A stretch of 64,000 nt of DNA, taken from Nemertoderma westbladi (taxonomy: Eukaryota; Animalia; Xenacoelomorpha). The stretch's first letter is position 1, and every line of letters begins with the position of its first letter. Positions 1-59,839 of this stretch are shown piece after piece. The notes below the pieces were generated by a model, which was not told the origin of the DNA, ran no database searches, and saw nothing but the letters and a program-made list of their open reading frames with translations. The position numbers and the translations under genes are program-made. The stretch covers positions 1 to 64,000 of the forward strand of contig JAUCBJ010000593.1 in the NCBI GenBank assembly GCA_032718475.1. Direction: 5' to 3'.

Positions 1-1324
1 AGACTAACTGTTTAGAGTATTTTTATATTTTAGAAACTGTGATTTTGTATATTTTATAGACTTAAATCCCATTTTCTGGGAGCGGTGTAAAAGCTTCTGT
101 GGGATATAACTGGCCCCTTTTTCTTCGCAATCCAGTTTCCCCCCAGGCGCTGGAATACTCTAAAAGGGTTCTCTAACTGTATATATATTCCCCTCGCCCG
201 CAAGGTACCGTTACAGGTGTTTTAACGGACATAAAAATCATTCTGCTATATACGTGTTTTGGCGGACATGGTAAGGCAAAAAGCCTGTAATGCACCAACT
301 ACCTTTCACAGCTTAGCCGTGATGATTCATATTACGACATCTAACAGCTGGTTGCTGACATGGAAACATCCATTGGACGCATAGTTCTTTGTTTGGCTTG
401 AGCCAATCAGAGCGATTTTTTCTGTCGACGTGTAGCTTTTCAGCCGATCATAAGGAGAGTGTTCAGTCTTACTGTTTTTTACTTGATACTTTGTTGTTAT
501 TGCTGTCTAAAGCCAGAAACACCGGCCTTTTGGGAAGAACTCTAGAAAACTGCTTAAATTATCGAAAGTATAAACTGTTACCTAACTAATCTCACTAATT
601 AACATACTCACTTAATTTAATTGCATTAATCATATTGTTTGTACTGTTATTTACCGTCAGTTATTAATTGTACCTATTTGTTGATGGAAATATTGCTCTT
701 TGGATAATACGGATAAATCACCCAAATTCCCAATTTTCTTGATACACTACAGGTTAGAGAGACCGGCTATACATAACAATTGCGATTTATATTAATGTGG
801 TGTGTATTGAATCCAATGTTATTTAGCAGACCCTACGTGAGTCAATTGCTGCTCTCTTTATGTGTGATCAAATATACTGACGGTCGGCATAATAGTGTGC
901 ATGATTGTGATTGGTAACAAAGTATTTCCTAAAGAATACGCTTTATACTTTAATCATAAGCAGTATCGTTGCGTTTTAGTATAAGTCTTAGTTCTGTTTA
1001 AATAGATAAAGCGCCACGTCCTAAAGGAACTGTTAATATTTCCCGAAAGCCAATAATACCTGTCAGAGATTAATTATTAACGATCTATCGAATAATACAG
1101 TAGGTATACACTGCAACCTTACACTGCAATAATAAAATTTAAGCATCCGAATTCAGTCTCCCGGGTGTAGATCCATCGGGTGAATGATCGCGCATGGGCT
1201 GACTTCGGCTAGTGTTTTGCGTATTAGCATAAAATATTGTCATATGCTAAAGTGGTTTTAATTAACTAAAAGACATATAAATTTTGGCAGGTTAAACTGC
1301 TAAAGGTCTTCAAAAGCGCGAACA
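1..1324 (+). mobile_element. 3' end of a second BEL/Pao-like LTR element: internal tail and PPT at 1..85, 3' LTR at 86..1324
   Basis: 1..85 nearly matches 30383..30467, including the PPT TGGGAGCGG. The LTR starts TGTAAA at 86 and ends GCGCGAACA at 1324. It shares long blocks with the LTRs at 16573 and 30468, e.g. AGCGCCACGTCCTAAAGGAACTGTTAATATTTCCCGAAAG and TTGGCAGGTTAAACTGCTAAAGGTCT. Confidence 0.9.
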
Positions 1325-14432: not shown

Positions 14433-16572
14433 CCCCTCCATCTCCTCTATAAGGCCCCCCCTTCCATATATCCCAGTCTCCCACCTCCCTTCATCTCCTC
14501 TATAAGGTCACCCTTCCATATATCCCAGCCTCCCACCTCCCTCCACCTCCTCTATAAGGGCCCCCTTCCATATATCCCAGCCTCCCACCTCCCTTCATCT
14601 CCTCTATAAGGTCACCCTTCCATATATCCCAGCCTCCCACCTCCCTCCACCTCCTCTATAAGGGCTCTCCTTCAATATATCCCAGCATCCCACCTCCCTC
14701 CACCTCCTCTATAAGGGCCCCCTCCATATATCCCAGCCTCCCACCTCCCTTCATATCCTCTCTAAGGGCTCCCCTTCCATATATATCAGCCTCCCACCTC
14801 CCTCCATCTCCTCTATAAGGGATCCCCTTCCATATATCCCAGCCTCCCACCTCCCTTCATCTCCTCTCTAAGGGCCCCCCTTCCATATATATCAGCCTCC
14901 CACCTCCCTCCATCTCCTCTATAAGGGATCCCCTTCCATATATCCCAGCCTCCCACCTCCCTTCATCTCCTCTCTAAGGGCCCCCCTTCCATATATATCA
15001 GCCTCCCACCTCCCTCCATCTCCTCTATAAGGGATCCCCTTCCATATATCCCAGCCTCCCACCTCCCTTCATCTCCTCTCTAAGGGCCCTCCTTCCATAT
15101 ATCCCAGCCTCCCACCTCCCTCCATCTCCTCTATAAGGGATCCCCTTCCATATATCCCAGCCTCCCACCTCCCTTCATCTCCTCTCTAAGGGCCCCCCTT
15201 CCATATATATCAGCCTCCCACTTCTTTCCATCTCCTCTATAAGGGATCCCCCCCCCCCCACTTCCCTCCATCTCCTCTATAAGTCCTCTCCTTCCATATA
15301 TCCCAGCCTCCCACCTCCCACCATCTCCTCTATAAGTCCTCTCTTTCCATATACCCCAGCCTCCCACATCCCTACATCTCCTCTATAGGGGCTCCCCTTC
15401 CACCTCCCTCCATCTCCTCTATAAGGCCTCTCCTTCCATATATCTCAGCCTCCCACCTCCCTCCATCTTCTCTATAAGGTATCCCCTTCCATATATTCCA
15501 ACCGCCCACCTCCCTTCAGCTCCTCTATAAGGTCACCCTTCCATATATCCCAGCCTCCCACCTCCCTCCACCTCCTCTATAAGGGCTCTCCTTCAATATA
15601 TCCCAGCATCCCACCTCCCTCCACCTCCTCTATAAGGGCCCCCTCCATATATCCCAGTCTCCAACCACCCTCCATCTCCTCTATAAGGCCTCTCCTTCAA
15701 TATATCCCAGCCTCCCACCTCCCTCCATCTTCTCTATAAGGTATCCCCTTCCATATATCCAACCGCCCACCTCCCTTCAGCTCCTCTATAAGGTCACCCT
15801 TCCATATATCCCAGCCTCCCACCTCCCTCCACCTCCTCTATAAGGGCTCTCCTTCAATATATCCCAGCATCCCACCTCCCTCCACCTCCTCTATAAGGGC
15901 CCCCTCCATATATCCCAGTCTCCAACCTCCCTCCATCTCCTCTATAAGGCCTCTCCTTCCATATATCCCAACCTCCCACCTCCCTCCATCTCCTCTATAA
16001 GGCCTCTCCTTCCATATATATCAGCCTCCCACCTCCCTCCATCTCCTCTATAAGGCCTCTCCGCTCTACAACTTGTATTTATTAATGTAGGCCTCTCCTT
16101 CCATATATCCCAACCTCCCACCTCCCTCCATCTCCTCTATAAGGCCTCTCCTTCCATATATCCCAGCCTCCCACCTCCCTCCACCTCCTCTATAAGGGCT
16201 CTCCTTCAATATATCCCAGCATCCCACCTCCCTCCACCTCCTCTATAAGGGCCCCCTTCCATATATCCCAGTCTCCAACCACCCTCCATCTCCTCTATAA
16301 GTCCTCTCCTTCCATATATATCAGCCTCCCACCTCCGTCCATCTCCTCTATAAGGCCTCTCTGCTCTACAACTTGTATTTATTAATGTAGGCCTCTCCTT
16401 CCATATATCCCAACCTCCCACCTCCCTCCATCTCCTCTATAAGGCCTCTCCTTCCATATATCTCAGCCTCCCACCTCCCTCCATCTCCTCTATAAGGCCT
16501 CTCCGCTCTACAACTTGTATTTATTAATGTAGGCCTCTCCTTCCATATATCCCAACCTCCCACCTCCCTCCA
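14433..16572. repeat. CT-rich satellite (~52-bp unit CCTTCCATATATCCCAGCCTCCCACCTCCCTCCATCTCCTCTATAAGG..), left part
   Basis: Tandem copies; the array resumes in register after the LTR element at 31651. Confidence 0.96.
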
Positions 16573-17756
16573 TGTAAAGGCTTTTGCGTAATTAGCCGGT
16601 TATTTTCCCCGTAAAGTACTTTGTAGTTGGTTTAACAGGCATAAAAGGCCTTGTCCTTACTGTACTGTTGTTTTAGAGGACATAAAAGCCATTTCTTCTG
16701 TATGTGTACTTTAGCGGACATGATTAGCAATTTTATGACGCAATGCGCCAAATCCTCTGTAAACAGTGTAGCTACCATGACGACGGCTAACAGCTGATGC
16801 TGTATACGTGGACCTTTTCTTTGTTCTCTGTTCCTTCTTTGTTCGGTCGACCAATCAGAGCGTTTTTTGCCTCTGTGTTAGAGATTGTATATAGAAACTC
16901 GTGGAGTTGAGTCAGTATGTGATTTTGTCCACAGCCTACAACATCGGCTTTGGAACCTCCGTGTTTCAGTCTTTAGTCCAACATTAGTAGGCTTAATTAT
17001 AGAACATATATCCATTATCTCACTCACTTAACTAATCATACATAACATATCATATCTCAATAATCATAACTTACTCATTCATAACTTAACATTGTACTGC
17101 TATTTACTGTCGTTTATTCATTATTTGTTGATGGAATATTATATTTGGAATACTGATAAATAATCAGACACCCCAATCTTCTTGATATACTAAAGGTTAG
17201 AGAGACCGGTTACATATAACGATTGCGACTTACATTAAGTGGTTTGAAGTGAATCTAATGCTATTTTATTGGCCCTACACGTATTGTCTGTTGTTCTCCT
17301 TATATGTGACTAAAATTAGTGAAGGTCAGCAGATTGGTGTGCAACATTGTGCAGTATTGTGTATGATCGTGATTGATAACGAAGCATCTCCTAAAGAATG
17401 CGCCATATACGTGAATCTATAGCCATCCCGTTGTGTCTAGTTTAAGTCATAACTCTGTTTATATATTTAGAGCGCCACGTCCTAAAGGAACTGTTAATAT
17501 TTCCCGAAAGTGAATAATATTTGTCAGAGATTATATATATTACGATCAGTCGAATAATACAGTAGGCCTACCCCGCAATACGGTTAGGCTTCCGAATCCA
17601 ATCTCCCGGGTATATCCAGCGGGTGAATGATCGCGCATAGACTGGTTTCGGTTAATGTAGTGTATCAAATACTTGTCATAGGCTAAAGACTATCTATCAT
17701 CTAAAAGACATCCCAATTTGGCAGGTTAAACTGCTAAAGGTCTGAAAGCGCAAACA
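16573..17756 (+). repeat. 5' LTR (1184 bp)
   Basis: TGTAAAGGC...GCGCAAACA. Differs from the 3' LTR by about 14 substitutions and 1 indel (counted by eye). Confidence 0.95.
16851..16862 (+). promoter_or_regulatory. Candidate LTR CCAAT box (CCAATCAGAGCG)
   Basis: Conserved in the diverged sister LTR (403..414) within an otherwise poorly conserved U3; TATA-like GTATATAGAAA lies ~35 bp downstream. Confidence 0.4.
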
Positions 17757-18164
17757 ATAACAGATATAAAGTTCGGATTGCAGGGTAGGCAATAAATACA
17801 GTTTAATATTGTTCTGGTAAGAACAATAACAGATAACTACGTACAATCAGAGGATATAGTTGTCTATTGTTCTGGTAAGAACAATAACAGATATAGCTTC
17901 TGTATTGCAGTAGGCAATAAAGCTGAAGTACCGGTTAACCGGTACCTAGTAGGCCTGACTACCTAACTACCCGGACCGGTACCTACAGCAGTACAGGTAC
18001 AGCAGTATTATTCGATTGTGAAATTGTATACCGGTAGGCTGTTTAAGAGATTAGGGACTGTACACCCCTTGTTTCTTTTGGAGCTTACTTATTTCTGTCA
18101 GTTTTATTTATTTGTAGGCCAGTATTGAGCAGAAGGCGTGTAAGCCTGCTCAGATTGTACAGAC

Positions 18165-18730
18165 AATTTGTAGGCTAGACTGTTGTCTGACTGTTGTTAG
18201 GTCTGAAGAGACTGTAGTGTGTGTAGAGCATATGTCCGAAAAAGTATTAGTTAGGAAAGTAGGGGCTGCCAGTGCTGTGAGGTGGACCCCCTCGAAAGAA
18301 TAAGTCGTACTACTCGGTTAGAACGCATACTAACTAACCATTTCGGAGTTTGCATATACTGTAGTGTATTTAGGCTTGATAGTAGTCTGCCAGCGTTTTC
18401 TGTACTTTGTTTGTGTAGTTTGTACGGGTAGCGTAATATTTCTTACTTAGATAATTTGTAGGCTGGATTTTGTCTGGCTGTTGTTAGGTCTTGAGAGATT
18501 TCGGTGTGTGTAGAGTGTATGTCCGATAAAGTGCCAGTTGGGAACGTAGGGGCTTCCAGAGCTGTGAGGTAAACCCCCTCGAAAGAATAAGTCGTCCTAC
18601 TAGGTTAGAACGCATACTAACTAACCATTTCGGAGTCTGCATATACCATAGTTTGTTTGGGCTTGATAGTAGTCTGTCAGTATTTGGTCTGCATTTTGTT
18701 TGAGTAGTCTGTACGCGTAGCGTAATATTT
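18165..18730 (+). repeat. Tandem ~288-bp duplication in the element's 5' leader (18165..18441 and 18453..18730)
   Basis: Two diverged copies sharing e.g. CCCCCTCGAAAGAATAAGTCGT and GGTTAGAACGCATACTAACTAACCATTTCGGAGT. Confidence 0.9.
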
Positions 18731-19937
18731 ATTATTCAGAGTTTATGCGATTATTCGCAACATTCATATCCCCAAGTTTATTCCTACAGTAATTGTGCTT
18801 GTTATATATACCGTTATAGTTAAACTAACCCCGGTACTACATCAGGGCTGCTTGGCGTAGGTAAAGACTGGAGATTTTGTGCTTTGGTCACTCTGGCAGA
18901 TACCGTGGTTCTTTTAGCTGTTCAAGTATTTTAACTACTAATTATATTTGTTGTATAAGTACTTGTACCTAATTTAGGGTTTAGTGTACAGTACTTTCCG
19001 AAGGTGATTAGTGTGTAGGCAGTATATTTGTGTTGTAAAGTGGTTAATAGGCACGTTGGTTCTGGTAGACCGCGGTAATTAACTTCTAGGTAGGAACACT
19101 CCGTGATACATAACGTAGTACTTATAGCGATATGGCTATAAGTCGTCAGACGGTGGTATTTTCCTATCTGGACAACGCAGTATATTTACTACTACTTATT
19201 ATTTTCAAATACCGTAGTACCCTGTCCTTTGTAATAACCAGATATTCTAACCCTTTGTTAGGCTGGTTAGTAGACTTCTTGTAAAATTACCCTAAAAATT
19301 CGTACTTGTAAATTTTTGTGTTTATTTAGAGATTGTAATCTCACCCCGAATTGTATGTAATTTGTAGTATTAAGTAACTTAGGTAAATTAGAATTATTTG
19401 TTTTAGTGTCCAACAAGTAGCACTTCACTGAGAGCACACAGCTTCTGTGTAGTGACTCCCCCAGAAATAATAACATTTATTTCAAATATTGACAAAAACC
19501 CATTTTAACGGGTATATATATTATAAATCAACTCAAACCGATTTATAAAATAGTAGGCCTGTCATACAACAATTAGGTCTAAATATCAGTTGGACTACTG
19601 CTTAAATAATGGTAATAAAGTAAGTTAAAGTAACCAAGTAACCCTAAAATTCAGAAATTCAGTTATTCTAAAATAATTGACATACCGGTATTCACGATAG
19701 GCCTATTATATATTTATAAATTTAGGCTGAAATTATACCGGTATTCTGTAATTAATTCTAGTTCATAATTATACTTATATATACTATAAGCATACCGGTA
19801 TTCTAATATATTATATATATATCACGCTACACTGAGTAGCAGTATCGGTAATTAATTACTAGGCTAACAGTGATACTGAATTACTAGACTTGCTTAAACT
19901 GTAATAGAGCAGTAGGCATTCAACTGTACAAACAAAC

Positions 19938-22900
19938 ATGTCTGACACTAAACAAAACCTGTCGGACAGTCTCCTAGATACAACCATCTGTGACCCAGAC
20001 AGGAGTGTGGAACGTGAGAGACCGAAGTTCAATTCACATCCTACTGTAAGAAAGATCATCCCTCCAGTAGTAATATCAGACCCTAGGCTGGTCCAACACC
20101 GTAGGTCTATCATAGGCACTCGAGCTCAGGTCAAGCGGGACCAAGAAGCAGCGGAACCGCAACAACCCGCGAGCCAAGAACTTATTTCTCAACGGCCCGA
20201 CAGCTCCAGTAGTGCGGACACTGTAGAGCTGACACCCGAGCACGGAGCAAAGATGACAGATGCGGTTTATTCGGACCCCCTTCTCATCCTTCCTGCAGCC
20301 GTACTCACTAGGTTATTGATTGCGGTGGAAGAACACCAGATCGATTGGGCGAGAAATAAGCGATCGACTAAAGATAGTTATGCGGGATACACAAGGGAAG
20401 AACTGAAGTCTATTGTCGAGTCGCAATGGAACTTCCCCGGACCCGGACTCCCGTTTGATTTATCAGAAGCTGCCTGGGAAGACATACACAGGATGGGAGT
20501 AACCAAGGAAACCATCGATCCAGCTGTGTGGAAGAGGTCCGCAGCCGGATACGCACAGGGATTCTTCAGCTCTATGGACCGATTAAAAGAACAACTGTTT
20601 CAACAACCCCAAGGACCTCAAGAGCAGGGACAGCTGCTTTATCAAGTTAGAGAAAGAATTCTACGAATCAGGCTAATCTTATCGGCCTTTGAGGAGGCTT
20701 CTAAAAGAAGACAAGACACGTCGTTGCAAGTTGTCGTAAAGACTTGGTTTCAACGGGTGAGTCTCCAGGATCAAGGAACGGCTCAGTGGAAAGCTCAGCT
20801 GGAGGAGCGCTCAACCCATGGAGAATCAACAGACGCTACTTTTTCCCAAGTGGAAAGTGAAGCGACGGCAGAGAAACCGCATAAGAGGGATGCCATTGAC
20901 ATCTATCTGTCAGACTATCAGCGCTTTTTAGGAGATGAAGAGTTGAGGAGAAGGTTAGATGGACTTAGCCCTAATAGTGAAGGAACCCAGCGTGTGTTGG
21001 ACGCCATCGATGTGGATATGAGAGCTGCGAACCAAGCTAGATTTGATGAACGCCTTCGCATCACTAGAGTCCAAGAAGAACAAGTGAAGAAAAAACGTAT
21101 AGAAGACAGAAAGGCAGCGGCAGCAGCAGTGGCAGCTGCAGAAGCAGAAAGAAAAGCGGCAGTAGCAGCGGCAGAGGCAGAGGCGGAAAGAAAAGCGGCA
21201 GCGGCAGAAGCGGAAAGAAAGGCGGCAGTGGCAGCGGCCGAAGCGGAAAGAAAAGCGGCAGAGGCAGTGGCAGAAGCAGAACGGAGAGCGGCTGAAGAAA
21301 CCACCCAATTAGAATTGGAAAACATTCAGGAGAATCAAGACTGCATAAATAAACAGTTAACAGCTAGTAATATGCAGATGATGAATCGATCTACTCCCAA
21401 AAGACAGGGATATACATCATCTGAGGAAGGCGATACCACCGATACTGAAGGCAAAGGAAATAGATCTCGTCTAAGCAGACGTAGAAGAACATCCCACCGT
21501 CAGAAATTGCCTGATTTGCCTCCAGCTGTTAGAAGGCAACTAAATAACACAAACTTAGGTAGTACAGAACCCACAGACCAAATAATTAAAATAGAAAGAC
21601 TCCCTACTATAGTAGATGAGCCTGAAATAATTAGGCCTGTTCCCGAAGCCACCCCTTCGGTGGTAGAGACACCTGTACTCCCTGAACCTACCTCTAAATT
21701 CCCTCTGCACAGCACTAAGCTACCTGTGCCCAGCAGAACAGCCCATGAGACAATCCATGTCCTGGACTCCGAGCGAAATATTAATGATTTGTCGCCCGTT
21801 GTCCCTCGTCCGCCCGCTACAACGTTGGCGGCTCCCTCTTCGGCGGTCGAGTGGGTGGATGAGAGACGATGGGGGATGGATCTCCTGCTCGGGCAGATGC
21901 AGGAGACCGTTCAAAAATTCAAGGGCACAGTAAGGGAAAGTAGGTTAGAGTTGCAAGAAGTGCAGCAAAGTATCGCGCTAGAACGCGATAAATTAGTAAA
22001 TACACAAAAGGGTATACCACCACCCCCTGTAACAATGTGTCAACCTGTTAGGTCTGAAGTGTTTCATGCGCAAGGTGTGGAGCCTACACGCATCTATACT
22101 GCTAGTGAAGTAGAAACTCCTATAGTAAACCCTATTAAGGGTAATTATAAACCTGTTGATAATGATATTCCCTATAGACCTGATCATAATCCGAGAAATT
22201 TATATACCGATAACTCGATATTAAATAACACGATGGCCCAAGAAAGTTTTACGCGTCAAATGGCTAGAACCGAAGCCCGTCAAGCGGTAAAGGTGGGAGA
22301 GATAGTCAAGTTCAATGGAGATGAGATGAAATGGTTACCTTTTAATGAATATTATAAAGATAACATACAGAACTCTGTACTATCTAATGGAGAGAAACTT
22401 AGATTCCTCATCGAGTGCTTGGAAGGAACTCCCAAGTTAATGGCGTTAAAGATTATTGGACATCCCGATGGATTAAGACAAGTTTGGGATACCCTAAACA
22501 TCAGGTATGGTAATAGGACTAACATAGCTAGGTATTTATATGCAAAATTAATGGCGCCCCGAAAGTTTCTTAGCAGCGGGATTATAGAGTTTTCCGACGA
22601 GATTCAGGAGATCTGTAGACAACTAGATTGGTTAGGTAAGTCTCATGAATACCAGAATTCTATGGTTGTAGGAGCCTTAGTATCTAATTTGCCCAAGGGC
22701 GGAGTAGGTACACGCTGGGACAAGACAGTGTTATACATGATGGAACAACAACGAAGAGATCCTACCATGGCTGATCTCATGTCATTCTTAGATGGAGAAG
22801 TGAAATTGCAGCTCCTAAAGCAGTCCAGAGAGAAGACACCGGAAAACAAGGTAAGTGAGAAACCCGTTTCTAGGAAAAAGGTAATACCAGTGTGTTATAC

Positions 22901-24515
22901 AGACGACGGCGAAAGCCAGGCTTCTCAAGAGGAAGACAACGGGAAAGACACTGAAAGATCTTACTATGACAACAAAGCGCTTAAGGACGTAAGTAAATTC
23001 AAGTCTCGAACCAATGACAGGAGAGAACAGGTAAGAAAAACTCCTCCTACGTCTCCTAAGAGAATTCATGTAAGAAAGCCCGAGGAAAGAACGAGTGTGC
23101 ACAACGTTACCCAAAGTAAGGTAAGTAACATCAAACCAAAATGTGTGCTGTGTGACGGGCCCCACCGTTTAAGTGTGTGTGATGAATTCCTAAGGAAATC
23201 ACTAAAGGATAGACGGAAAGTCATGTGGGATAAGCGGTTGTGTTATAATTGCCTCAGACGAGGACACCAACGGCGAACCTGTTACTCCGACGCAAGTAAG
23301 GTAAGTGAGGTAAGTGAGTCCGAACTACATGTCCAATTCAGTGATGTGAACGACACTGACCAAAGTTCTGAGATGGAAGGATTCTATACGGACGAATTCT
23401 CAGACGAAAACGAATCCTGTTACTTAATAAATACCGCAGTGTATCGAGCACTTACGTATGAGAAGGAAACCAACAGTGAGCTCCCCGTAATTACTTCTGA
23501 TCGACAACCATCTTGGAAAGCGCCAACTTCCAATGTAGGAATCCGAGAATTTCCTGTAGTACAGTTAAGGGTCCACGGACCTAAAAGGAGTTATATAGTG
23601 AACGCCCTCCTTGACTCCGGTAGCACAGGAACATTCATCGACAAAGAACTAGCCGAAGACATCTTTGCTGGACAACCCAAGTTCCGAACTAAGCTAAACA
23701 TGTCAGGAATTATGCAGGTTTGGAAATCTACCGTAATAGCGGATTATTATGTAGGCGCGTTGTCCACCCCCCAGGATGAACTAGGAGAACACAGCATAAG
23801 GTCAGTAAAAATGGTCGCGATAAAGAACTTCGCTACCAGCCAAGTGGAACCTTATAACTGGGATGAGGACGATTTCACCCAGCAGCTTGAAATACCTAGA
23901 TTCAACACCGATTACCCTGGAGTCCAAATACTCATCGGTCAAAATGCGCATGAAGCGCTCGAGACATTGGAGAAACGGCCTGCTCAACCGCAACCACTAC
24001 AAGCTTATGCGGGAAGAACTAGAGTGGGTTGGTACTTTACTGGCCCTTCCCGTAGAACTCTCATGGAAAGATTACCGAAAGATCAGGTATATCAATTAAG
24101 TGAACGGGAAGTGGAGAGCAGTGAAGTTGACGACCCAACTGAGGGAACACCATACTCCTCAGATAATGACGATATCCACTCCAATGTAGATCAATGGAGA
24201 CATTGCCCCGAGACGATTAATCTAGCCGACATCGCCTCCAGAGGAGCAACTCCTCAAGAACTGACAGATACTCCAGACTGGTTAGGTGAACCCGACTTCC
24301 TAAGTAAAGAAGATGAATGGCCTCCCCACCTTAACCCGGCTGAGATTAGACAGGCCAAGGGAGCGGAGAAAGTAACACAACCACTCAATCGCCCAGCTGG
24401 TCGTTTATGTTTACTGGAAAGAGACCGAAAACTGTCCAGAAACTATGGAAGGCAAGATACTCTTCCCACGACCACCTCCCTAATCCAACAAATATCTAGG
24501 GACTCCATAACGTAA
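19938..24515 (+). CDS. gag-pro: BEL/Pao Gag-protease polyprotein with RT, most of RNase H and integrase deleted in frame (1525 aa)
   Basis: DUF1759-like Gag core (FNGDEMKWLPF..EKLRFLIECLEG). Zinc knuckles CVLCDGPHRLSVC and CYNCLRRGHQRRTC. Aspartic protease ALLDSGS..ILIG..TRVGWYFTGP. Then the Pao RNase H tail QWRHCPETINLADIASRG..W.GEPDFL..WP and the integrase C-terminal remnant RPAGRLCLLE. No YxDD RT motif. Confidence 0.92.
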   Translation: MSDTKQNLSDSLLDTTICDPDRSVERERPKFNSHPTVRKIIPPVVISDPRLVQHRRSIIGTRAQVKRDQEAAEPQQPASQELISQRPDSSSSADTVELTPEHGAKMTDAVYSDPLLILPAAVLTRLLIAVEEHQIDWARNKRSTKDSYAGYTREELKSIVESQWNFPGPGLPFDLSEAAWEDIHRMGVTKETIDPAVWKRSAAGYAQGFFSSMDRLKEQLFQQPQGPQEQGQLLYQVRERILRIRLILSAFEEASKRRQDTSLQVVVKTWFQRVSLQDQGTAQWKAQLEERSTHGESTDATFSQVESEATAEKPHKRDAIDIYLSDYQRFLGDEELRRRLDGLSPNSEGTQRVLDAIDVDMRAANQARFDERLRITRVQEEQVKKKRIEDRKAAAAAVAAAEAERKAAVAAAEAEAERKAAAAEAERKAAVAAAEAERKAAEAVAEAERRAAEETTQLELENIQENQDCINKQLTASNMQMMNRSTPKRQGYTSSEEGDTTDTEGKGNRSRLSRRRRTSHRQKLPDLPPAVRRQLNNTNLGSTEPTDQIIKIERLPTIVDEPEIIRPVPEATPSVVETPVLPEPTSKFPLHSTKLPVPSRTAHETIHVLDSERNINDLSPVVPRPPATTLAAPSSAVEWVDERRWGMDLLLGQMQETVQKFKGTVRESRLELQEVQQSIALERDKLVNTQKGIPPPPVTMCQPVRSEVFHAQGVEPTRIYTASEVETPIVNPIKGNYKPVDNDIPYRPDHNPRNLYTDNSILNNTMAQESFTRQMARTEARQAVKVGEIVKFNGDEMKWLPFNEYYKDNIQNSVLSNGEKLRFLIECLEGTPKLMALKIIGHPDGLRQVWDTLNIRYGNRTNIARYLYAKLMAPRKFLSSGIIEFSDEIQEICRQLDWLGKSHEYQNSMVVGALVSNLPKGGVGTRWDKTVLYMMEQQRRDPTMADLMSFLDGEVKLQLLKQSREKTPENKVSEKPVSRKKVIPVCYTDDGESQASQEEDNGKDTERSYYDNKALKDVSKFKSRTNDRREQVRKTPPTSPKRIHVRKPEERTSVHNVTQSKVSNIKPKCVLCDGPHRLSVCDEFLRKSLKDRRKVMWDKRLCYNCLRRGHQRRTCYSDASKVSEVSESELHVQFSDVNDTDQSSEMEGFYTDEFSDENESCYLINTAVYRALTYEKETNSELPVITSDRQPSWKAPTSNVGIREFPVVQLRVHGPKRSYIVNALLDSGSTGTFIDKELAEDIFAGQPKFRTKLNMSGIMQVWKSTVIADYYVGALSTPQDELGEHSIRSVKMVAIKNFATSQVEPYNWDEDDFTQQLEIPRFNTDYPGVQILIGQNAHEALETLEKRPAQPQPLQAYAGRTRVGWYFTGPSRRTLMERLPKDQVYQLSEREVESSEVDDPTEGTPYSSDNDDIHSNVDQWRHCPETINLADIASRGATPQELTDTPDWLGEPDFLSKEDEWPPHLNPAEIRQAKGAEKVTQPLNRPAGRLCLLERDRKLSRNYGRQDTLPTTTSLIQQISRDSIT

Positions 24516-25045
24516 CAACATACGGAGTGGGTGTGTGACTATATTATTTTATATTTATTTTATATTATGTATGTATTATTATGTAATTTTATTATAATCG
24601 TTTTCTTTAATTTTATTTAGTAGAATGTTATTTTAGCGATTATTTAGTAGATTAGTGCAATATATATTCGCGTTTATTACTTAATTACTTATATATTATA
24701 TATTTAGTGCGACGGCGAGAAATAATTCTTTTTCTCTTTCCTTACTGTCCGTATTACATTATAAATACGTGACTACAGTAAGATGAAATATCCGTACTTA
24801 TTAAAGTACAATAAAGCTCCTACTATATTCAAGTATTATTGGTAAGCAGGTATTAGGAATGCAAAGTTCAGATCCTCGTGTCTCGGCTAAACCAAGCTCT
24901 GGGTAGACCTTGGAAACGACTTGCCTCTTCTCACTGACATTGCTTCGTGCGATATTGCTCTCATACCGTATATTGAATAATACATATAGTAGCGTGATGT
25001 CCCTTTAACAGTAGCGTAAAACGCAAAATAAATCTGTTAAACCCT

Positions 25046-25321
25046 TTGACCATCTGCAATTCTAGTCGATTAAGATATCGCGGCACCCACCGATATACTT
25101 GAAGGACAAATTCTAGAAGCAGTGGTTAACGTCCCCAGACAAGTTCTGGAATAAACTGGTGCCCATCCTAAATATTAATTATTAATATTTACAAAATCTG
25201 TCAAATTTTAGATCCTTTAAAATTCTAGTCGATTAAGATATCGTAGCACTTACCGATACTCTTAAAAAGACAAAATTCCTAGAATCTAGGATCCCAGTCC
25301 CCAGACACGTTCTGGAATAAA
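25046..25321 (+). other. Two copies of a long imperfect hairpin plus a small stem-loop in the inter-ORF region
   Basis: Copies at ~25046..25155 and ~25210..25321 share ATTCTAGTCGATTAAGATATCG..CCGATA..GACAAA..CTAGAA..GTCCCCAGACA.GTTCTGGAATAAA with nested complementarity. Confidence 0.75.
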
Positions 25322-26140
25322 ATTACGTCTATTTAACATTAAATAATAAAATTTACGGGAATAAATTTAAATTCATATATTTCAATGAATTTAATAAATT
25401 GTCATTTTATACAATTTATAACATTCCCAAAATTCCATTAATTAATAGATCATGGGAGCGGAGATTCACCCTATTAAGTGTATTTGTGTGCGAGAATCTC
25501 CAATATATAGTCAATAGCCGATAAAATTCATAAAATCATATATAGAGAGGATATTGACAATTAAAGAATTACTATTAAATAGCATCCCAGATCTGTATGC
25601 ATGAGAATTACCCTAATTCTACCGCTAGCTTTCCATAATGTCACCATGGCAACAACCACGCTAGAATTAGAAGTGAGTTAAAAGAACAATAGAAGGCTTG
25701 CCCCATTGAATAGCATAGGGAATAAATAGCGCGCTGCTAGTATCCAAGGATACATAATAAATAAAGTGACATTCTGGAAGGTACTGACTAACGGACAAAT
25801 GGCCCGAATGTGTACAGTTTATGGCAGTTGTGTTGAATTTGTGCGTTCATAGGTGAATGTTACTGCTAAAGTGTGTTTACAGTAGCTAGTCGCAATTGTG
25901 AAAGTAACCCTAACTCTCCAGAAAGAACCTGAAGTACATCTAAGCCTTTGGGACGGACAGTGGAGTGACTTGTGCCGGTTATCGTTGTCGTTGTGTAGCT
26001 ACATCATTGGCGAAAGCACAGCGACGACGGTACATCGGCGCTGAGGATCTTGCACTGTCCGGGGGCAAAAGAGGGGTAGGCAGCGACGCCCATAGCCTAT
26101 TATATAAACTCATTATAATATTGATAAACTCATAGCAGAT

Positions 26141-26572
26141 ATGACTGAGTTGATAGAAGATGATCTTGGTATCAGGGAGCGATATACTCTACCTTTACAA
26201 GCGTTTGTCAATAGCTTGATACGCGGCGACGCTGGTCCAACTACTACGGAGGATGATGGTCGTTATATCGAACCACCAATGTCCCCGGAGCAACTTACGC
26301 ATGAATTGGATTATAGAAAGTTCACCGCTCGCTATACGCATCGTAATGGTACGTATATGGACTTCTTAACTACTGGCCATCCTATCGATTTACACGATAC
26401 GGACGATGTAGACACCGAAAGGGAAATGGTTTATTTAAATATCATACCCAGCGGAGTCGGAACGATAAACCGAGAATGGAACACGAGAACTCTATTCGAA
26501 ACAAACTCGAAAGGGAAGACGTTGAAGAGCCAGATAAACGCAGCGACTTTAACGATTATCTGGAATTCCTGA
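26141..26572 (+). CDS. ORF2 N-terminal segment, unknown function
   Basis: ATG-initiated 143-aa ORF overlapping the next segment, whose frame is open from 26347. Confidence 0.5.
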   Translation: MTELIEDDLGIRERYTLPLQAFVNSLIRGDAGPTTTEDDGRYIEPPMSPEQLTHELDYRKFTARYTHRNGTYMDFLTTGHPIDLHDTDDVDTEREMVYLNIIPSGVGTINREWNTRTLFETNSKGKTLKSQINAATLTIIWNS

Positions 26573-27465
26573 GAGAGACATATCTCAATATTGCCAGCCA
26601 ACAAATTCTCGAAACTCGATATCCTCAAGGTATACATCATGACCCTATGATAGAACTCAAACGACTCTATTTCACTATGATGTATCTTACCGCCGATCGA
26701 CCGCTACCTGTCGTTCCAGAAAGCTTCGAACAGATGGAGGAATATTGTAAAACTGGAGAACGATCACCCGCGTTTCCCCTGCAGGACGTGCGTCTTTGGT
26801 ATTACTGCGACGAATGCCCTAGACCCAATCAGCAAACGGAAAGACATAAACATCCGCGGAGACGTTGCGCTAAACACAGTTTTACACGATATACTTATGG
26901 GAGTTTCGAGCGAAACCTGTTCGACGTATCCCCTACGGTCGCTCGACTCAAACAATCCCTGAACAAACCAATGATCATAGTTCCGGAATACTCGGTCAGA
27001 CCTCCTCATTCCTCAGTTAGACCTCAGACTCTTGATCCTAATAGTATCACGGATCCTCCCAAACTGTATTTGCTGTTCAAAGATCTAGTGATACCCGAAC
27101 AGTTGATCGGTGGCACTCCGGTAGTAGGCTCACTAGATATTCGCCAACCCTACCTAACTGGATTGGGACGCGGTCATCCAATATCGCCGTTTAACCCACA
27201 CAACCGTCCCGGCTTCACCTCGATACAACCCGTTACGGAAGTCGAAGAGAGCGTCGTACGAAACGCATTAGACGCTATTCGGCAGAAAATCGGAAAGGGA
27301 ACTTACGATTGTTTGGAGAAACGTAAATTGCAACAACAAGTCCAAGCGGTGAAGGAATTAGCTTTACCCCAGTTCAATAGAGAAATACAAAATCTCGAGG
27401 AGGACATCAAACGTGGACGAACCTACTCTTTACAAGAGTTCCTAGATGAGCGTCTACAACAATAA
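26476..27465 (+). CDS. ORF2 segment 2, with a possible Zn-binding CxxC..H..C motif and C-terminal coiled coil
   Basis: 329-aa non-repetitive ORF containing WYYCDECPRPNQQTERHKHPRRRCAKH; in frame with the next segment. Confidence 0.6.
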   Translation: MEHENSIRNKLEREDVEEPDKRSDFNDYLEFLRETYLNIASQQILETRYPQGIHHDPMIELKRLYFTMMYLTADRPLPVVPESFEQMEEYCKTGERSPAFPLQDVRLWYYCDECPRPNQQTERHKHPRRRCAKHSFTRYTYGSFERNLFDVSPTVARLKQSLNKPMIIVPEYSVRPPHSSVRPQTLDPNSITDPPKLYLLFKDLVIPEQLIGGTPVVGSLDIRQPYLTGLGRGHPISPFNPHNRPGFTSIQPVTEVEESVVRNALDAIRQKIGKGTYDCLEKRKLQQQVQAVKELALPQFNREIQNLEEDIKRGRTYSLQEFLDERLQQ

Positions 27466-27501
27466 GCGGAGGAAAATCAGCTCGAGGAGAGACATATAGA
27501 A

Positions 27502-28737
27502 ATGGATGAGAGAGAAGAAGCAACTTTAGCTCAACCCGAAGCTCAAATCCTTATGACGGATCTCTACTCTAAAACCATCCTTCATCCCTCGATGGTTCCC
27601 CATTTCGGAGACAAACTCTTTGCTACGGTACAACCCCAACCGGTTGATATCAACCTAAGATCTCGAGATCTTATCGCTGACGCTCCCATGTTGCAACGTC
27701 CGCCCATCGAAGCCGCTCGTGTCGATGGTATACTCGTTGAACCTCCGGACAATAGAGCGGATCTTGTCCGTCGCATGGTACACGATGTTAACATACGCGC
27801 TAGACCTTTACCGGACTCGTTTTATGGGATCAAAGATCACCCTTATTACGTCAACCTAACACAATATTACATGGTGAAACCGGAAGATCCTACACATAGT
27901 CTGAGGTTTCTGCCACTCATAAATCCTCTCGATCTTGTCGAACTCGAACAACTGCATAAACATCTGGATCAGTTAGTTAAAATAAACTCATTTCGAAAAC
28001 CATACAATGTTTCCAGAATAGAGAAAGAAACAATACCTCCGTATAATCTTGATGGATTCATCAAAACTCGTTTAGTACACTGGAATCTTGACGTGTTATT
28101 CGAGGAGGAAAGAATTCAACGATATGGAGATGTGGAAACATATACCACACAATATTTAAAGTATAGAGACCTACCTAATGCTAGCGAATGCGCTACCTTG
28201 TGGCATCCTATGGGAATGACCCTCGAAAACGCCACTAAAGAGTGGAATGAGACTCTTAACGTTATCGAGATGTATGGAGTTGTCACCTACGACAACGAAG
28301 GTAGCGTTCCGGTTGGAGAACTGGGAACTACGCGGATGATACACATACGAGGACTCGCTGGTTCTACCCACGTATTTACTCGAGCGTGTTCCGATGTGAT
28401 TGATTATTCTTTTGAGACTCTTACTGAGACACAAAAGAAACTCCGACATGGACAATTCGAACTCGCGCAGCGTTATGTCGCCGACACCGAGCGCAAACCG
28501 GCCATGGGTATCGATGGATCGATGTTACCCCAGCCCGTGCTCGAGATGTTGTTTAACGAAAGAATCCTTAAAATCGGCTCAGCTGTTTATGGAGACCTAC
28601 AAAACGACTTTCGGAATATGGAGAACATTCCATACCCCTTCGTTGATGGTCAGCTGATTGCTCCCTGGGCAGAAGGCCGAGGTTTCTTCCGCACTATGTA
28701 TGCAAATACACCCAGCGGCATTACTAAAGTACAATGA
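27502..28737 (+). CDS. ORF2 segment 3 with ExoI/ExoII motifs of a WRN/EXD/Mut-7-like DEDDy exonuclease
   Basis: VVTYDNEG (ExoI D-x-E), LPQPVLEMLFNERILKIGSAVYGDL (ExoII) and FVDGQLIA. Confidence 0.7.
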   Translation: MDEREEATLAQPEAQILMTDLYSKTILHPSMVPHFGDKLFATVQPQPVDINLRSRDLIADAPMLQRPPIEAARVDGILVEPPDNRADLVRRMVHDVNIRARPLPDSFYGIKDHPYYVNLTQYYMVKPEDPTHSLRFLPLINPLDLVELEQLHKHLDQLVKINSFRKPYNVSRIEKETIPPYNLDGFIKTRLVHWNLDVLFEEERIQRYGDVETYTTQYLKYRDLPNASECATLWHPMGMTLENATKEWNETLNVIEMYGVVTYDNEGSVPVGELGTTRMIHIRGLAGSTHVFTRACSDVIDYSFETLTETQKKLRHGQFELAQRYVADTERKPAMGIDGSMLPQPVLEMLFNERILKIGSAVYGDLQNDFRNMENIPYPFVDGQLIAPWAEGRGFFRTMYANTPSGITKVQ

Positions 28738-28854
28738 ACCTCCATCGGACATCTTGCCTTTCAAGAATACGGATGGAATTTCAAGGTTGGAAATCCTATA
28801 AATTACCAACAAGTATATGGAGATCATTATTCTCGTTTATACTTTGATGGACCA

Positions 28855-30162
28855 TTGACTGCACCTGGCGCCGTGTATAGCTTTATGAGTGTTCCACTTC
28901 GTCCCTCCTTAGCTATATACACGATCTTTGAAAATGCAGCACTTGCCGGTTGGCTAGCCGATGTGTGCAGTCGTACCATACGCGCCCATCCCTTAATACT
29001 TGGAACCAAACTCGCCAAGTTAGATGAACACAATAAATTCATCCGCTTCGAATGTTTCAGGCGCTTTCTGACTCCGTTCCGTAACGTTGATAGTCAGTTC
29101 AAGGACCGCACTCTGACCAAACTCAGCCTAAGAGACTCAGCTGCGGAGAAGCTAAATAGCGCGGGATTTGCTCTCTTTCAGGACGTTTGTATACAGAACT
29201 TACATTCATCTGTTATACAAAGACCCCAAATACCCACGGGTTATTCTGTCGTGGAAGTTCAGACAGTGGGTCCGCTTGCGGAGACAGCCGCACCTACCTC
29301 AGCTATGCAATTGGAAGACGAACCAATCTGCTTAGAGTCTGAAGCGATCCAGCCTACAGCGCCCCGGAGCAGCGATAACGATTACGTCTTGGAGTGGTAT
29401 CAAGGTCCACAATGTCTCACCGCATACGATTATCGACACGCCAACTATGTTTCTCGAAAACGTTGTCGATTATGCGCATCGAGAGACCATTTCACCCCTA
29501 TGGACTCAGACGTACCCTGCTCCTATTTCCACGAACAGCCGATGATGGAGATCTATTGTGCGTATTGCAGACTTAATAACTCGCATATTTTTGCAGTCTG
29601 CCCCCAATTTATGACCCAATGTCACCACTGTCAACTTAAAGGACATGCCAGTTATAATTGCCCCTTTAACCGCGATTTAGAAAGCGTAGATGAGATGATT
29701 ACCCTGCGCTACATCCGAGCTTGGGAAGCGAACGCGGATTTACATTGTGAGGCCCGCCATTGCTACTACCCTGGACGCTCTTACGAGGGAGTTTACGCGT
29801 TCCATCCTTATTTATTCGCGTCTGTGGAACAAAAAACACGCACACCGAGTTACGAACTAATGAAGCGTGTTGGTGAGTGTATTTCCACCAAATTTGTTCG
29901 AAAATATCTTAGGAACGTCAATCCTAATGATATTACTTCATACCATTTGATCAATTACATCCGTCAAGACCCTGAGTATGGCGATTTATTTATTAACTCG
30001 CACCCTGAGTTACAGGAAGTATCTCGACGGCCCTACGAATATCGAGCCCGAGAACGCGAGCTGGAAAGAACCATTAAACCAAGGAAGTTTCTCACCACTC
30101 ACGGTCCACCTACCGCCATTGTCCAGACGACCCGTCAAGGACCCGTCGCCCTAACGCCCTAA
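28855..30162 (+). CDS. ORF2 segment 4: exonuclease ExoIII region plus tandem CCHC zinc knuckles
   Basis: PLTAPGAVYS, CRLCASRDH..C, CAYCRLNNSHIFAVC and CHHCQLKGHASYNC. The listed start is a TTG inside a frame open from 28738. Confidence 0.68.
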   Translation: MTAPGAVYSFMSVPLRPSLAIYTIFENAALAGWLADVCSRTIRAHPLILGTKLAKLDEHNKFIRFECFRRFLTPFRNVDSQFKDRTLTKLSLRDSAAEKLNSAGFALFQDVCIQNLHSSVIQRPQIPTGYSVVEVQTVGPLAETAAPTSAMQLEDEPICLESEAIQPTAPRSSDNDYVLEWYQGPQCLTAYDYRHANYVSRKRCRLCASRDHFTPMDSDVPCSYFHEQPMMEIYCAYCRLNNSHIFAVCPQFMTQCHHCQLKGHASYNCPFNRDLESVDEMITLRYIRAWEANADLHCEARHCYYPGRSYEGVYAFHPYLFASVEQKTRTPSYELMKRVGECISTKFVRKYLRNVNPNDITSYHLINYIRQDPEYGDLFINSHPELQEVSRRPYEYRARERELERTIKPRKFLTTHGPPTAIVQTTRQGPVALTP

Positions 30163-30458
30163 CGCGCCCTAAAGGCCGTTAGACCTTGCTCCACTGAAGT
30201 TGATATCGATCAACCAGGTACCTCGACCGGGGATACACCGATCGTAATCCTAAACCTTCTGATGCAATTGTATTGCACCCTTCACCCAGGAGTTACAGCC
30301 CTCCTAGTAAAGTGGCTCGCCCCAAAGAGAAAAGGACTCTTGCTAGCCTCAAAAAACTACGTAAACGCCGTCCGCGTAAGAAAGACTAACTGTTTAGAGT
30401 ATTTTTATATTTTAGAAACTGTGATTTGTTACATTTTATAGACTTAAATCCCATTTTC

Positions 30459-30467
30459 TGGGAGCGG
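30459..30467 (+). other. Polypurine tract (TGGGAGCGG) preceded by a T-run
   Basis: Directly abuts the TG of the 3' LTR; identical at 77..85. Confidence 0.75.
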
Positions 30468-31650
30468 TGTAAAGGCTTTTGCGTAATTAGCCGGTTATTT
30501 TCCCCGTAAAGTACTTTGTAGTTGGTTTAACAGGCATAAAAGGCCTTGTCCTTACTGTACTGTTGTTTTAGAGGACATAAATGCCATTTCTTCTGTATGT
30601 GTACTTTAGCGGACATGATTAGCAATTTTATGACGCAATGCGCCAAATCCTCTGTAAACAGTGTAGCTACCATGACGACGGCTAACAGCTGATGCTGTAT
30701 ACGTGGACCTTTTCTTTATTCTCTGTTCCTTCTTTGTTCGGTCGACCAATCAGAGCGTTTTTTGCCTCTGTGTTAGAGATTGTATATAGAAACTCGTGGA
30801 GTTGAGTCAGTATGTGATTTTGTCCACAGCCTACAACATCGGCTTTGGAACCTCCGTGTTTCAGTCTTTAGTCCAACATTAGTAGGCTTAATTATAGAAC
30901 GTATATCGTTATCTCACTCACTTAACTAATCATACATAACATATCATATCTCAATAATCATAACTTACTCATTCATAACTTAACATTGTACTGCTATTTA
31001 CTGTCGGTTATTCATTATTTGTTGATGGAATATTATATTTGGAATACTGATAAATAATCAGACACCCCAATCTTCTTGATATACTAAAGGTTAGAGAGAA
31101 CGGTTACATATAATGATTGCGACTTACATTAAGTGGTTTGAAGTGAATCTAATGCTATTTTATAGGCCCTACACGTATTGTCTGTTGTTCTCCTTATATG
31201 TGACTAAAATTAGTGAAGGTCAGCAGATTGGTGTGCAGCATTGTGCAGTATTGTGTATGATCGTGATTGATAACGAAGCATCTCCTAAAGAATGCGCCAT
31301 ATACGTGAATCTATAGCCATCCCGTTGTGTCTAGTTTAAGTCATAACTCTGTTTATATATTTAGAGCGCCATGTCCTAAAGGAACTGTTAATATTTCCCG
31401 AAAGTGAATAATATTTGTCAGAGATTATATATATTACGATCAGTCGAATAATACAGTAGGCCTACCCCGCAATACGGTTAGGCTTCCGAATCCAGTCTCC
31501 CGGGTATATCCAGCGGGTGAATGATAGCGCATAGACTGGTTTCGGCTAATGTAGTGTATCAAATACTTGTCATAGGCTAAAGACTATCTATCATCTAAAA
31601 GACATCCCAATTTGGCAGGTTAAACTGCTAAAGGTCTGAAAGCGCGAACA
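30468..31650 (+). repeat. 3' LTR (1183 bp)
   Basis: TGTAAAGGC...GCGCGAACA followed by the TSD CTCCA. Confidence 0.96.
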
Positions 31651-34600
31651 CTCCATCTCATCTATAAGGCCTCTCCTTCCATATATCCCAGCCTCCCACC
31701 TCCCTCCACCTCCTCTATAAGGGCCCCCTTCCATATATCCCAGTCTCCAACCACCCTCCATCTCCTCTATAAGGCCTCTCCTTCCATATATCTCAGCCTC
31801 CCACCTCCTTCCATCTCCTCTATAAGGCCTCTCCGCTCTACAACTTGTATTTATTAATGTAGGCCTCTCCTTCCATATATCCCAACCTCCCACCTCCCTC
31901 CATCTCCTCTATAAGGCCTCTCCTTCCATATATCTCAGCCTCCCACCTCCCTCCATCTCCTCTATAAGGCCTCTCCGCTCTACAACTTGTATTTACTAAT
32001 GTAGGCCTCTCCTTCCATATATCCCAACCTCCCACCTCCCTCCATCTCCTCTATAAGGCCTCTCCTTCCATATATCCCAGCCTCCCACCTCCCTTCATCT
32101 CCTCTATAAGGTCACCCTTCCATATATCCCAGCCTCCCACCTCCCTCCATCTCCACTATAAGGGCCCCCTTCCATATATCCCAGTCTCCAACCTCCCTTC
32201 ATCTCCTCTCTAAGGGCCCCCCTTCAATATATCCCAGCCTCCCACCTCCCTCCACCTCCTCTATAAGGCCTCTCCTTCCATATATCCCAGCCTCCCACCT
32301 CCCTTCATCTCCTCTATAAGGTCACCCTTCCATATATCCCAGCCTCCCACCTCCCTTCATCTCCTCTCTAAGGGCCCCCCTTCAATATATCCCAGCCTCC
32401 CACCTCCCTCCACCTCCTCTATAAGGCCTCTCCTTCCATATATCCCAGCCTCCCACCTCCCTCCACCTCCTCTATAAGGTCCCTCTTGCATATATCCCAG
32501 CCTCCCACCTCCCTTCATCTCCTCTCTAAGGGCCCCCCTTCCATATATCCCAGCCTCCAACCTCCCTGCATCTCCTCTATAAGTCCTCTCCTTCCATATA
32601 TCCCAACCTCCCACCTCCCTCCATCCCCTCTATAAGGCCTCTCCTTCCATATATCCCAACCTCCCACCTCCCTCCATCCCCTCTATAAGGCCTCTCCTTC
32701 CATATATATCAGCCTCCCACCTCCCTCCACCTCCTCTATAAGGGCTCTCCTTCAATATATCCCAGCATCCCACCTCCCTCCACCTCCTCTATAAGGGCCC
32801 CCTTCCATATATCCCAGTCTCCAACCACCCTCCATCTCCTCTATAAGGCCTCTCCTTCCATATATATCAGCCTCCCACCTCCCTCCATCTCCTCTATAAG
32901 GCCTCTCCGCTCTACAACTTGTATTTATTAATGTAGGCCTCTCCTTCCATATATCCCAACCTCCCACCTCCCTCCATCTCCTCTATAAGGCCTCTCCTTC
33001 CATATATCTCAGCCTCCCACCTCCCTCCATCTCCTCTATAAGGCCTCTCCGCTCTACAACTTGTATTTATTAATGTAGGCCTCTCCTTCCATATATCCCA
33101 GCCTCCCACATCCCTCCATCTCCTCTATAAGGTCTCCCTTCCATATATCCCAGTCTCCAACCACCCTCCATCTCCTCTATAAGGCCTCTCCTTCCATATA
33201 TATCAGCCTCCCACCTCCCTCCACCTCCTCTATAAGGGCTCTCCTTCAATATATCCCAGCATCCCACCTCCCTCCACCTCCTCTATGAGGGCCCCCTTCC
33301 ATATATCCCAGTCTCCCGCCTCCCTCCACCTCCTCTATAAGGCCTCTCCTTCCACATATATCAGCCTCCCACCTCCCTCCATCTCCTCTATAAGGCCTCT
33401 CCGCTCTACAACTTGTATTTATTAATGTAGGCATCTCCTTCCATATATCCCAACCTCCCACCTTCCTCCATCTCCTCTATAAGGCCTCTCCTTCCATATA
33501 TCTCAGCCTCCCACCTCCCTCCATCTCCTCTATAAGGCCTCTCCGCTCTACAACTTGTATTTATTAATGTAGGCCTCTCCTTCCATATATCCCAACCTCC
33601 CACCTCCCTCCATCTCATCTATAAGGCCTCTCCTTCCATATATCCCAGCCTCCCACCTCCCTTCATCTCCTCTATAAGGTCACCCTTCCATATATCCCAG
33701 CCTCCCACCTCCCTCCACCTCCTCTATAAGGGCCCCCTTCCATATATCCCAGTCTCCAACCACCCTCCATCTCCTCTATAAGGCCTCTCCTTCCATATAT
33801 CTCAGCCTCCCACCTCCCTCCATCCCCTCTATAAGGCCTCTCCTTCCATATATCCCAACCTCCCACCTCCCTCCATCTCCTCTATAAGGCCTCTCCGCTC
33901 TACAACTTGTATTTATTAATGTAGGCCTCTCCTTCCATATATCCCAACCTCCCACCTCCCTCCATCCCCTCTATAAGGCCTCTCCTTCCATATATCCCAA
34001 CCTCCCACCTCCCTCCATCCCCTCTATAAGGCCTCTCCTTCCATATATATCAGCCTCCCACCTCCCTCCACCTCCTCTATAAGGGCTCTCCTTCAATATA
34101 TCCCAGCATCCCACCTCCCTCCACCTCCTCTATAAGGGCCCCCTTCCATATATCCCAGTCTCCAACCACCCTCCATCTCCTCTATAAGGCCTCTCCTTCC
34201 ATATATATCAGCCTCCCACCTCCCTCCATCTCCTCTATAAGGCCTCTCCGCTCTACAACTTGTATTTATTAATGTAGGCCTCTCCTTCCATATATCCCAA
34301 CCTCCCACCTCCCTCCATCTCCTCTATAAGGCCTCTCCTTCCATATATCTCAGCCTCCCACCTCCCTCCATCTCCTCTATAAGGCCTCTCCGCTCTACAA
34401 CTTGTATTTATTAATGTAGGCCTCTCCTTCCATATATCCCAGCCTCCCACATCCCTCCATCTCCTCTATAAGGTCTCCCTTCCATATATCCCAGTCTCCA
34501 ACCACCCTCCATCTCCTCTATAAGGCCTCTCCTTCCATATATATCAGCCTCCCACCTCCCTCCACCTCCTCTATAAGGGCTCTCCTTCAATATATCCCAG

Positions 34601-59799: not shown

Positions 59800-59839
59800 T
59801 TTACTCGGGACCCCTATTTCAGCGAAAAGTCATTCCACG

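Follow-up and report, generated by a model that had tools for sequence, protein, structure and literature searches.

A BEL/Pao retroelement copy without reverse transcriptase or integrase, with an open Gag-protease frame and a predicted DEDDy-knuckle second open reading frame, likely from a helper-dependent family

Introduction

Elements of the BEL/Pao group (Belpaoviridae, Semotivirus) have long terminal repeats (LTRs) of 0.2–1.2 kb within a total length of 4.2–10 kb, typically with an 18-nt tRNA-Arg/Gly primer-binding site (PBS), and a polypurine tract (PPT) of about 10 nt (ICTV profile, PMC8742986). In the available part of a BEL/Pao survey, env is the only extra gene mentioned (PMC3118150). 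The element described here occupies 16573–31650 (15,078 nt) of a 64-kb window of DNA, the whole stretch analysed, which comprises positions 1 to 64,000 of contig JAUCBJ010000593.1 from Nemertoderma westbladi (assembly GCA_032718475.1). It appears to be a BEL/Pao copy without reverse transcriptase (RT) or integrase, with one open reading frame (ORF) for Gag and protease (ORF1) and a second (ORF2) predicted to encode a DEDDy exonuclease-like domain and zinc knuckles, and it likely represents a helper-dependent, multi-copy family. Sequence comparison gives this reading a probability of about 0.7.

Juno and Vesta, two LTR elements of bdelloid rotifers, are gypsy-type. Both carry RNase D-like DEDDy ORF3s whose function is untested, and the pol-deleted, non-autonomous bdelloid element TelKA2n keeps an env-like ORF3, according to the accessible part of the study (Rodriguez et al., 2017; PMC5408684). 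A 2019 opinion piece, as far as its text was available, counts the DnaQ-like domain among the well-known accessory domains that LTR elements carry (PMC6338049), and the same statement is made for Terminons in the portion at hand of another paper (PMC6431247). Plant TR-GAG elements encode Gag alone, and their transposition is recorded in the available section of the source (PMC8704663).

The present element resembles BEL/Pao members in its DUF1759 gag, CCHC knuckles, aspartic protease and Pao RNase H tail, in LTRs within the usual range, in a short PPT candidate and in having an extra ORF in the env slot, but differs in its length of 15.1 kb, in lacking RT and integrase, in having no tRNA-Arg/Gly PBS adjoining the LTR, and in an extra ORF that is not env-like (PMC8742986). 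Judged by its pol and PBS, it is a BEL/Pao derivative that falls outside the autonomous membership. ORF2, a likely DEDDy ORF, resembles the RNase D-like DEDDy ORF3s of Juno and Vesta in its place downstream of pol, in lacking a transmembrane (TM) domain over the range scanned and in its altered candidate catalytic motif, whereas those elements are described in the accessible text as autonomous (with the canonical pol set), low-copy and not BEL/Pao (PMC5408684). ORF2 also differs in having about 1340 codons and C-terminal knuckles. TelKA2n and TR-GAG are likewise non-autonomous and keep part of their coding capacity, but TelKA2n is without part of gag and keeps env (PMC5408684), TR-GAG keeps gag only (PMC8704663), and neither, in what those sources make available, has an intact Gag-protease plus a nuclease gene. 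By analogy, the element would work as a helper-dependent element of the TR-GAG/TelKA2n type with cargo of the Juno/Vesta type, being itself derived from BEL/Pao. The first-pass annotation, made by a model from the sequence alone, named no earlier description of this architecture. Its components are in fact published, a DEDDy ORF in the env slot (PMC5408684) and gag-only elements (PMC8704663) both appearing in the accessible text, and it is their combination in BEL/Pao that was not found. The literature searched, which included few subscription journals and had Repbase, Dfam and GyDB outside its scope, yielded no BEL/Pao element with an exonuclease ORF and no Gag-protease-only BEL family.

Results

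Insertion, ORF1 and Loss of pol

The two LTRs have TG...CA ends and, over 1184 nt, show 14 substitutions and one gap (98.7% identity), so the insertion is likely recent. CTCCA stands on both flanks, and excising the element together with one CTCCA brings the surrounding 53-nt satellite back into register, which establishes the insertion as real; the same satellite junction is seen at 21 uninterrupted sites in the window. Both the 5-bp target-site duplication and the roughly 99% LTR identity reported in the first pass are thus borne out. The satellite array split by the insertion is about 10 kb long, and tandem arrays with units of 20, 25, 30, 34, 38, 39, 50 and 53 nt fill much of the window between 5243 and 64000.

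The homologs of ORF1, all 12 of which are Pao-type polyproteins combining PF03564 with Pao pol domains, share only 22–28% identity with it, placing the element far from anything in the homolog database. Together with the DUF1759 match (Table 1), they uphold the BEL/Pao origin first proposed. When 10 of these polyproteins are combined into a profile, its columns 172–681 and 1232–1287 of 1805 find counterparts in ORF1, in one frame, and there is no other significant match in the six frames of the element. RT and integrase were found in no element frame, either by tblastn with 9 Pao polyproteins or with the profile, in keeping with their reported absence. About 550 profile columns, covering RT and most of RNase H, are absent upstream of the RNase H tail, where some 30 residues stand instead. 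Downstream of the tail the integrase is absent, bar a non-significant terminal likeness, and the frame is kept. Both pol deletions are therefore in frame, for which the chance expectation is about 1 in 9, and this hints that the truncated polyprotein is perhaps kept functional. The Gag-protease ORF had been called intact; it is indeed one open frame, but it also ends with the Pao RNase H remnant. No ORF1 locus was found in metagenome contigs.

ORF2 and Its Predicted Product

Beyond ORF1, a 1.6-kb non-coding spacer, as first described, leads to ORF2. With 2 stops per 1242 codons in its frame vs 48–86 in the other five, ORF2 is clearly a gene, and it is intronless. It is nevertheless dead in the window copy, where the frame shifts near 26430 and is interrupted by stop codons at 27463 and 28735; the earlier figure of about 4.2 kb, given as though the frame were intact, has to be corrected to about 4.0 kb with these three lesions. 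The absence of a TM helix holds for the range scanned, from 26431 on, in which the highest Kyte-Doolittle mean over 19 residues is 1.19, below that of a TM-like stretch. Over this range, therefore, ORF2 is not env-like.

The DxE, KxGxxxxxD and YxxxE motifs, placed by eye, are taken here to be ExoI, ExoII and ExoIII of a DEDDy exonuclease. Homologs were sought with a read-through translation of ORF2, with X at the breaks, and the sole match among 1.84 billion representatives (E 6.3e-5) was P0014, an unnamed 648-aa protein on one 9.4-kb ENA contig. P0014, half as long as ORF2, aligns with it in the same order of parts: first the exonuclease-like part, at 29% identity over 150 aa, with the ExoII and ExoIII regions in correspondence, and then the Cys/His knuckles. 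Weak matches of the ExoII stretch to RNase D (TIGR01388, E 0.072, the best family score) and of the corresponding P0014 stretch to PF01612 (E 0.2) point the same way, as does the nearest Atlas cluster of P0014 (PF01612 100%, zf-CCHC 61%, score 0.86), which is a lead only. A DEDDy fold is considered quite likely, and nuclease activity of intact ORF2 copies is predicted with somewhat better than even odds. Of the first-pass description of the product, the CCHC knuckles are present as three Cys/His knuckles, while the exonuclease-like domain is favoured by its motifs and by the domain order of P0014 but has no significant family match.

Further searches with ORF2 gave 0 matches among 7819 candidates in a word-indexed search, 0 in the PDB and 0 among viral contigs, and the 2 matches from phage tblastn were at chance level. 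P0014 matched itself alone (a singleton) and had no locus in metagenome contigs. An extra Cys/His cluster (CxxC...H...C...H) at 26806–26890 (+), in the N-terminal third of ORF2, may be a metal site; it matches no family.

Copies in Public Contigs

Four of seven public runs were used (X1, X3, X4 and X5), all as contigs, from four studies under two organism labels; X1 is possibly the source sample, and hence not independent. Contigs cover 30 of 30 bins of the element in all four runs. Records placed on the element number 125,361 in X1 and 35,394 in X3, and since over a third in each are less than 95% alike, the data point to many diverged copies. The 32 contig pieces displayed fall into three groups: 17 in ORF2 have 643 substitutions (12.9%) and 10 gap letters, the 9 in ORF1 have 235 substitutions and 7 gap letters, and the 6 in non-coding sequence have 124 substitutions and 31 gap letters. 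Many substitutions with few gap letters suggest that the ORF2 frame is maintained, and ORF2 looks conserved as a coding frame across copies, diverged pieces spanning 3544 of its 4022 nt over the four runs. At the ORF2 frameshift, each of the four runs has contigs that read differently from the window, so that lesion is not family-wide.

X4 contigs extend past 24379 by 59 letters in both directions, which takes them across the likely second (RNase H/integrase) pol junction as it stands in the window. Four X5 contigs depart from the window sequence at 24373, at the same likely junction, and are candidates for relatives built in another way, perhaps with pol; five X3 contigs depart at 23291. The ORF2 deletions in contigs lie within 26507–30250, with skips of, for example, 2805, 2546 and 2728 nt, and because one is common to X4 and X5, shorter subfamilies appear to exist. 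Copies with near-gapless ORF2 at about 13% divergence, and contigs crossing the second junction, make this look like a multi-copy family and not a one-off.

Leader, 3' End and Candidate Splice Donors

The long structured leader noted in the first pass is confirmed: it measures 2.2 kb, and its first 404 nt (17757–18160) fold more stably than 100 of 100 shuffles (z -5.14). No tRNA-type PBS is visible, in that no TGG occurs within 57 nt of the 5' LTR and the first lies 58 nt downstream; the first TGG motifs sit in the loop of a short two-copy hairpin. Self-priming at the PBS position found no support, no complement over 7 nt being present in the LTR. Rfam returned nothing real in the element.

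The PPT candidate, an 8-nt purine-rich run with one C, recurs unchanged in the sister element that the start of the window truncates. That element had been reported as a sister copy, and its 3' end is present, but its LTR agrees at just 853 of 1114 aligned positions (77%), or about 68–70% in the first 400 nt, vs 82 of 85 nt over the 3' untranslated region (UTR) and PPT. A UTR kept beside a diverged LTR suggests LTR exchange by recombination or a strong constraint on the 3' cis region.

Five perfect AG/GTAAGT (AGGTAAGT) candidate splice-donor motifs occur in 680 nt of gag, whereas the remainder of the 15-kb sense strand and the whole antisense strand have none. Shuffles of synonymous codons contain 0.21 motifs on average and reach five in 0 of 5000 cases, for a motif chosen after inspection. 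Two of the copies form a 9-nt tandem. Pao Gag usually has three knuckles, and the tandem presumably sits where the third would be expected. Joining the phase-1 donor at 22636 to either of two weak AG sites directly ahead of ORF2, at 26136 and 26139, would keep the frame and yield a capsid-nuclease fusion. Alternatively, the cluster may give a spliced message for Gag alone, or bind U1 with no splicing.

Table 1. Coordinates of the element and its parts in the 64-kb window
Feature	Position	Strand	Remarks
Sister element 3' end, cut by window start	1..1324	+	Near-identical 3' UTR, same PPT, LTR 77%
Left target-site duplication, 5 bp	16568..16572	.	Inside 53-bp satellite
5' LTR, 1184 nt	16573..17756	+	TG...CA
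Leader	17757..19937	+	Structured first 400 nt; no TGG-type PBS adjoining LTR
Twin hairpins in leader	17807-17828, 17865-17886	+	
Tandem duplication in leader	18161-18740	+	About 290 nt
ORF1, 1525 aa, open	19938..24515	+	Long unique N-terminal part, Pao gag, knuckles, protease, pol remnants
DUF1759 (PF03564) BEL/Pao gag domain	22311..22697	+	E 4.7e-12
Five candidate splice-donor motifs	22634..23315	+	Four phase 0, one phase 1
Two Gag CCHC zinc knuckles	23142..23282	+	
Aspartic protease (LLDSG) and Pao-type C-terminal part	23595..24083	+	Weak Pfam matches, E 0.002-0.03
Pao RNase H C-terminal remnant	24177..24344	+	Profile iE (independent E-value) 2.5e-11
Possible last residues of Pao integrase C-terminus (RP..RLCLL)	24390..24422	+	Not significant, E 1.2-11
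AT-rich non-coding spacer	24516..26140	+	About 165-nt duplication
ORF2, about 1340 codons	26141..30162	+	Broken in window copy
Likely DEDDy/RNase D-type 3'-5' exonuclease domain	28288..28935	+	Second stop inside
Candidate motifs ExoI, ExoII, ExoIII	28288, 28570, 28918	+	Placed by eye
Three Cys/His knuckles	29464..29661	+	One canonical CX2CX4HX4C
3' UTR ending in PPT candidate	30163..30467	+	PPT candidate 30460-30467
3' LTR, 1183 nt	30468..31650	+	
Right target-site duplication	31651..31655	.	

Discussion

In the proposed mechanism, the element's own Gag would package its RNA and its own protease would mature it, giving it priority in shared particles, while RT, RNase H and integrase from an autonomous Pao relative would copy and integrate it. 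Such a helper would recognise the LTR ends and PPT, which the two LTR types share. ORF2 would have been inherited from an autonomous parent in the env slot, where it may simply be that parent's own third ORF, and would be made from a subgenomic RNA that arises by splicing or from a start within the spacer. Single-stranded RNA would be bound by its knuckles, with the nuclease trimming 3' ends. An accessory role in countering small-RNA silencing is placed first, though tentatively and short of even odds, because copies lose ORF2 freely yet diverged copies keep its frame. Primer or 3'-end processing, which the lack of a visible tRNA PBS brings to mind, is somewhat doubtful; RNA binding without catalysis is unlikely, and any other role quite unlikely.

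Several observations weigh against a family that keeps ORF2 as a working nuclease gene. Large deletions inside ORF2 occur in contigs of all four runs, making the gene dispensable in cis, and the window copy has three lesions in ORF2 against none in ORF1, a difference compatible with chance (P about 0.10 if lesions fall uniformly). The by-piece gap contrast reaches p 0.05 on pieces chosen by the tool, and the printed substitutions (3 synonymous and 6 not in ORF2, 9 and 11 in ORF1) are few and biased and show no selection. Of the two pol junctions, the second is crossed by X4 contigs; the first, at about 24085–24175, is covered by no displayed contig row. As for the product, 0 Pfam families fall on the exonuclease-like domain, PDB searches yield no nuclease, no exonuclease match reaches significance, and two AlphaFold models have a predicted local distance difference test score (pLDDT) of 32.7 and 33.7, unusable for the fold. 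The last acidic motif residue is also E, in YxxxE, and not D, in both ORF2 and P0014. The satellite retroelement family first proposed finds agreement in the multi-copy contigs with their apparently maintained ORF2 frame, but was overstated for the window copy, whose ORF2 is dead.

Some of these points would suit a non-autonomous family in which ORF2 is no active nuclease, being either a DEDD derivative without catalysis, of the EXD1 or Maelstrom kind, or an unrelated fold that binds RNA through its knuckles alone. The lack of any significant family or structure match, the non-canonical ExoIII, the long insertion that follows the ExoI candidate and the failure of MAFFT to align the ExoI motifs of ORF2 and P0014 are all as this would have it. 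It is nonetheless quite improbable, since ORF2 and P0014 have acidic residues at all candidate motif positions, and bdelloid ORF3s likewise alter the motif (DEED), as the available text on them reports (PMC5408684). In a different alternative, the real family is autonomous BEL/Pao, about 19 kb long and with an ORF3 for the exonuclease, and pol-less copies arise from it by sporadic deletion without forming a lineage. Internal deletions are common, with many joints in the contigs, and the departures of X5 contigs at 24373 and X3 contigs at 23291 would fit differently built relatives, on their positions only. This is distinctly unlikely given that both pol deletions keep the ORF1 frame, that the insertion looks recent and complete with its target-site duplication, and that X4, a run from another study, has contigs across the second junction in its window form. 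Finally, a one-off event, in which one BEL copy with pol deleted took up an exonuclease gene of the host and is now decaying, would account for the threefold breakage of ORF2, but it is largely refuted and barely credible: ORF2 pieces at about 13% divergence with few gaps cover most of the frame in four runs, ORF2 is intronless and resembles no named host gene in the homolog searches, and the sister element has the same 3' UTR end.

A helper-dependent family with its own Gag-protease and a predicted nuclease gene is therefore still preferred. If this is true, nuclease-type accessory genes extend from bdelloid elements to BEL/Pao, which suggests that retroelements have recruited DEDDy domains repeatedly, for a role that has been open since 2017, going by the accessible part of that study (PMC5408684). 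A large family that is without pol but keeps capsid, protease and a 4-kb accessory gene would be a natural test of cis vs trans functions, and its many diverged copies would permit the selection analysis that low-copy rotifer families could not support. A fuller scenario holds that an old, highly amplified satellite BEL/Pao lineage has given up pol, keeps Gag-protease and an exonuclease-knuckle protein under selection, primes without a canonical tRNA PBS, forms a capsid-nuclease fusion through the donor cluster, and brings an anti-piRNA or RNA-trimming enzyme into shared particles. This is improbable as a whole but, if true, would describe a retroelement that depends on a helper and supplies a function in exchange.

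Other Features of the Window

A decayed fragment of an unrelated Pao element lies at 59810–61134 (+), with matches to Peptidase_A17 (E 6e-14) and DUF5641 (E 5e-21). As a candidate helper, this fragment (59.8–61.1 kb) was rejected because its DNA does not resemble that of the element. Amid the satellites stand two housekeeping genes in divergent orientation, both without introns: an M20 amidohydrolase at 47102–48391 (-) and a PGM2-like phosphoglucomutase at 50336–52156 (+). A probable Laminin-G-domain exon at 42526–42810 (+), with a weak match to PF02210 (E 0.046) and, like the class of the element, a sign of a metazoan host, ends at a splice-donor-like site.

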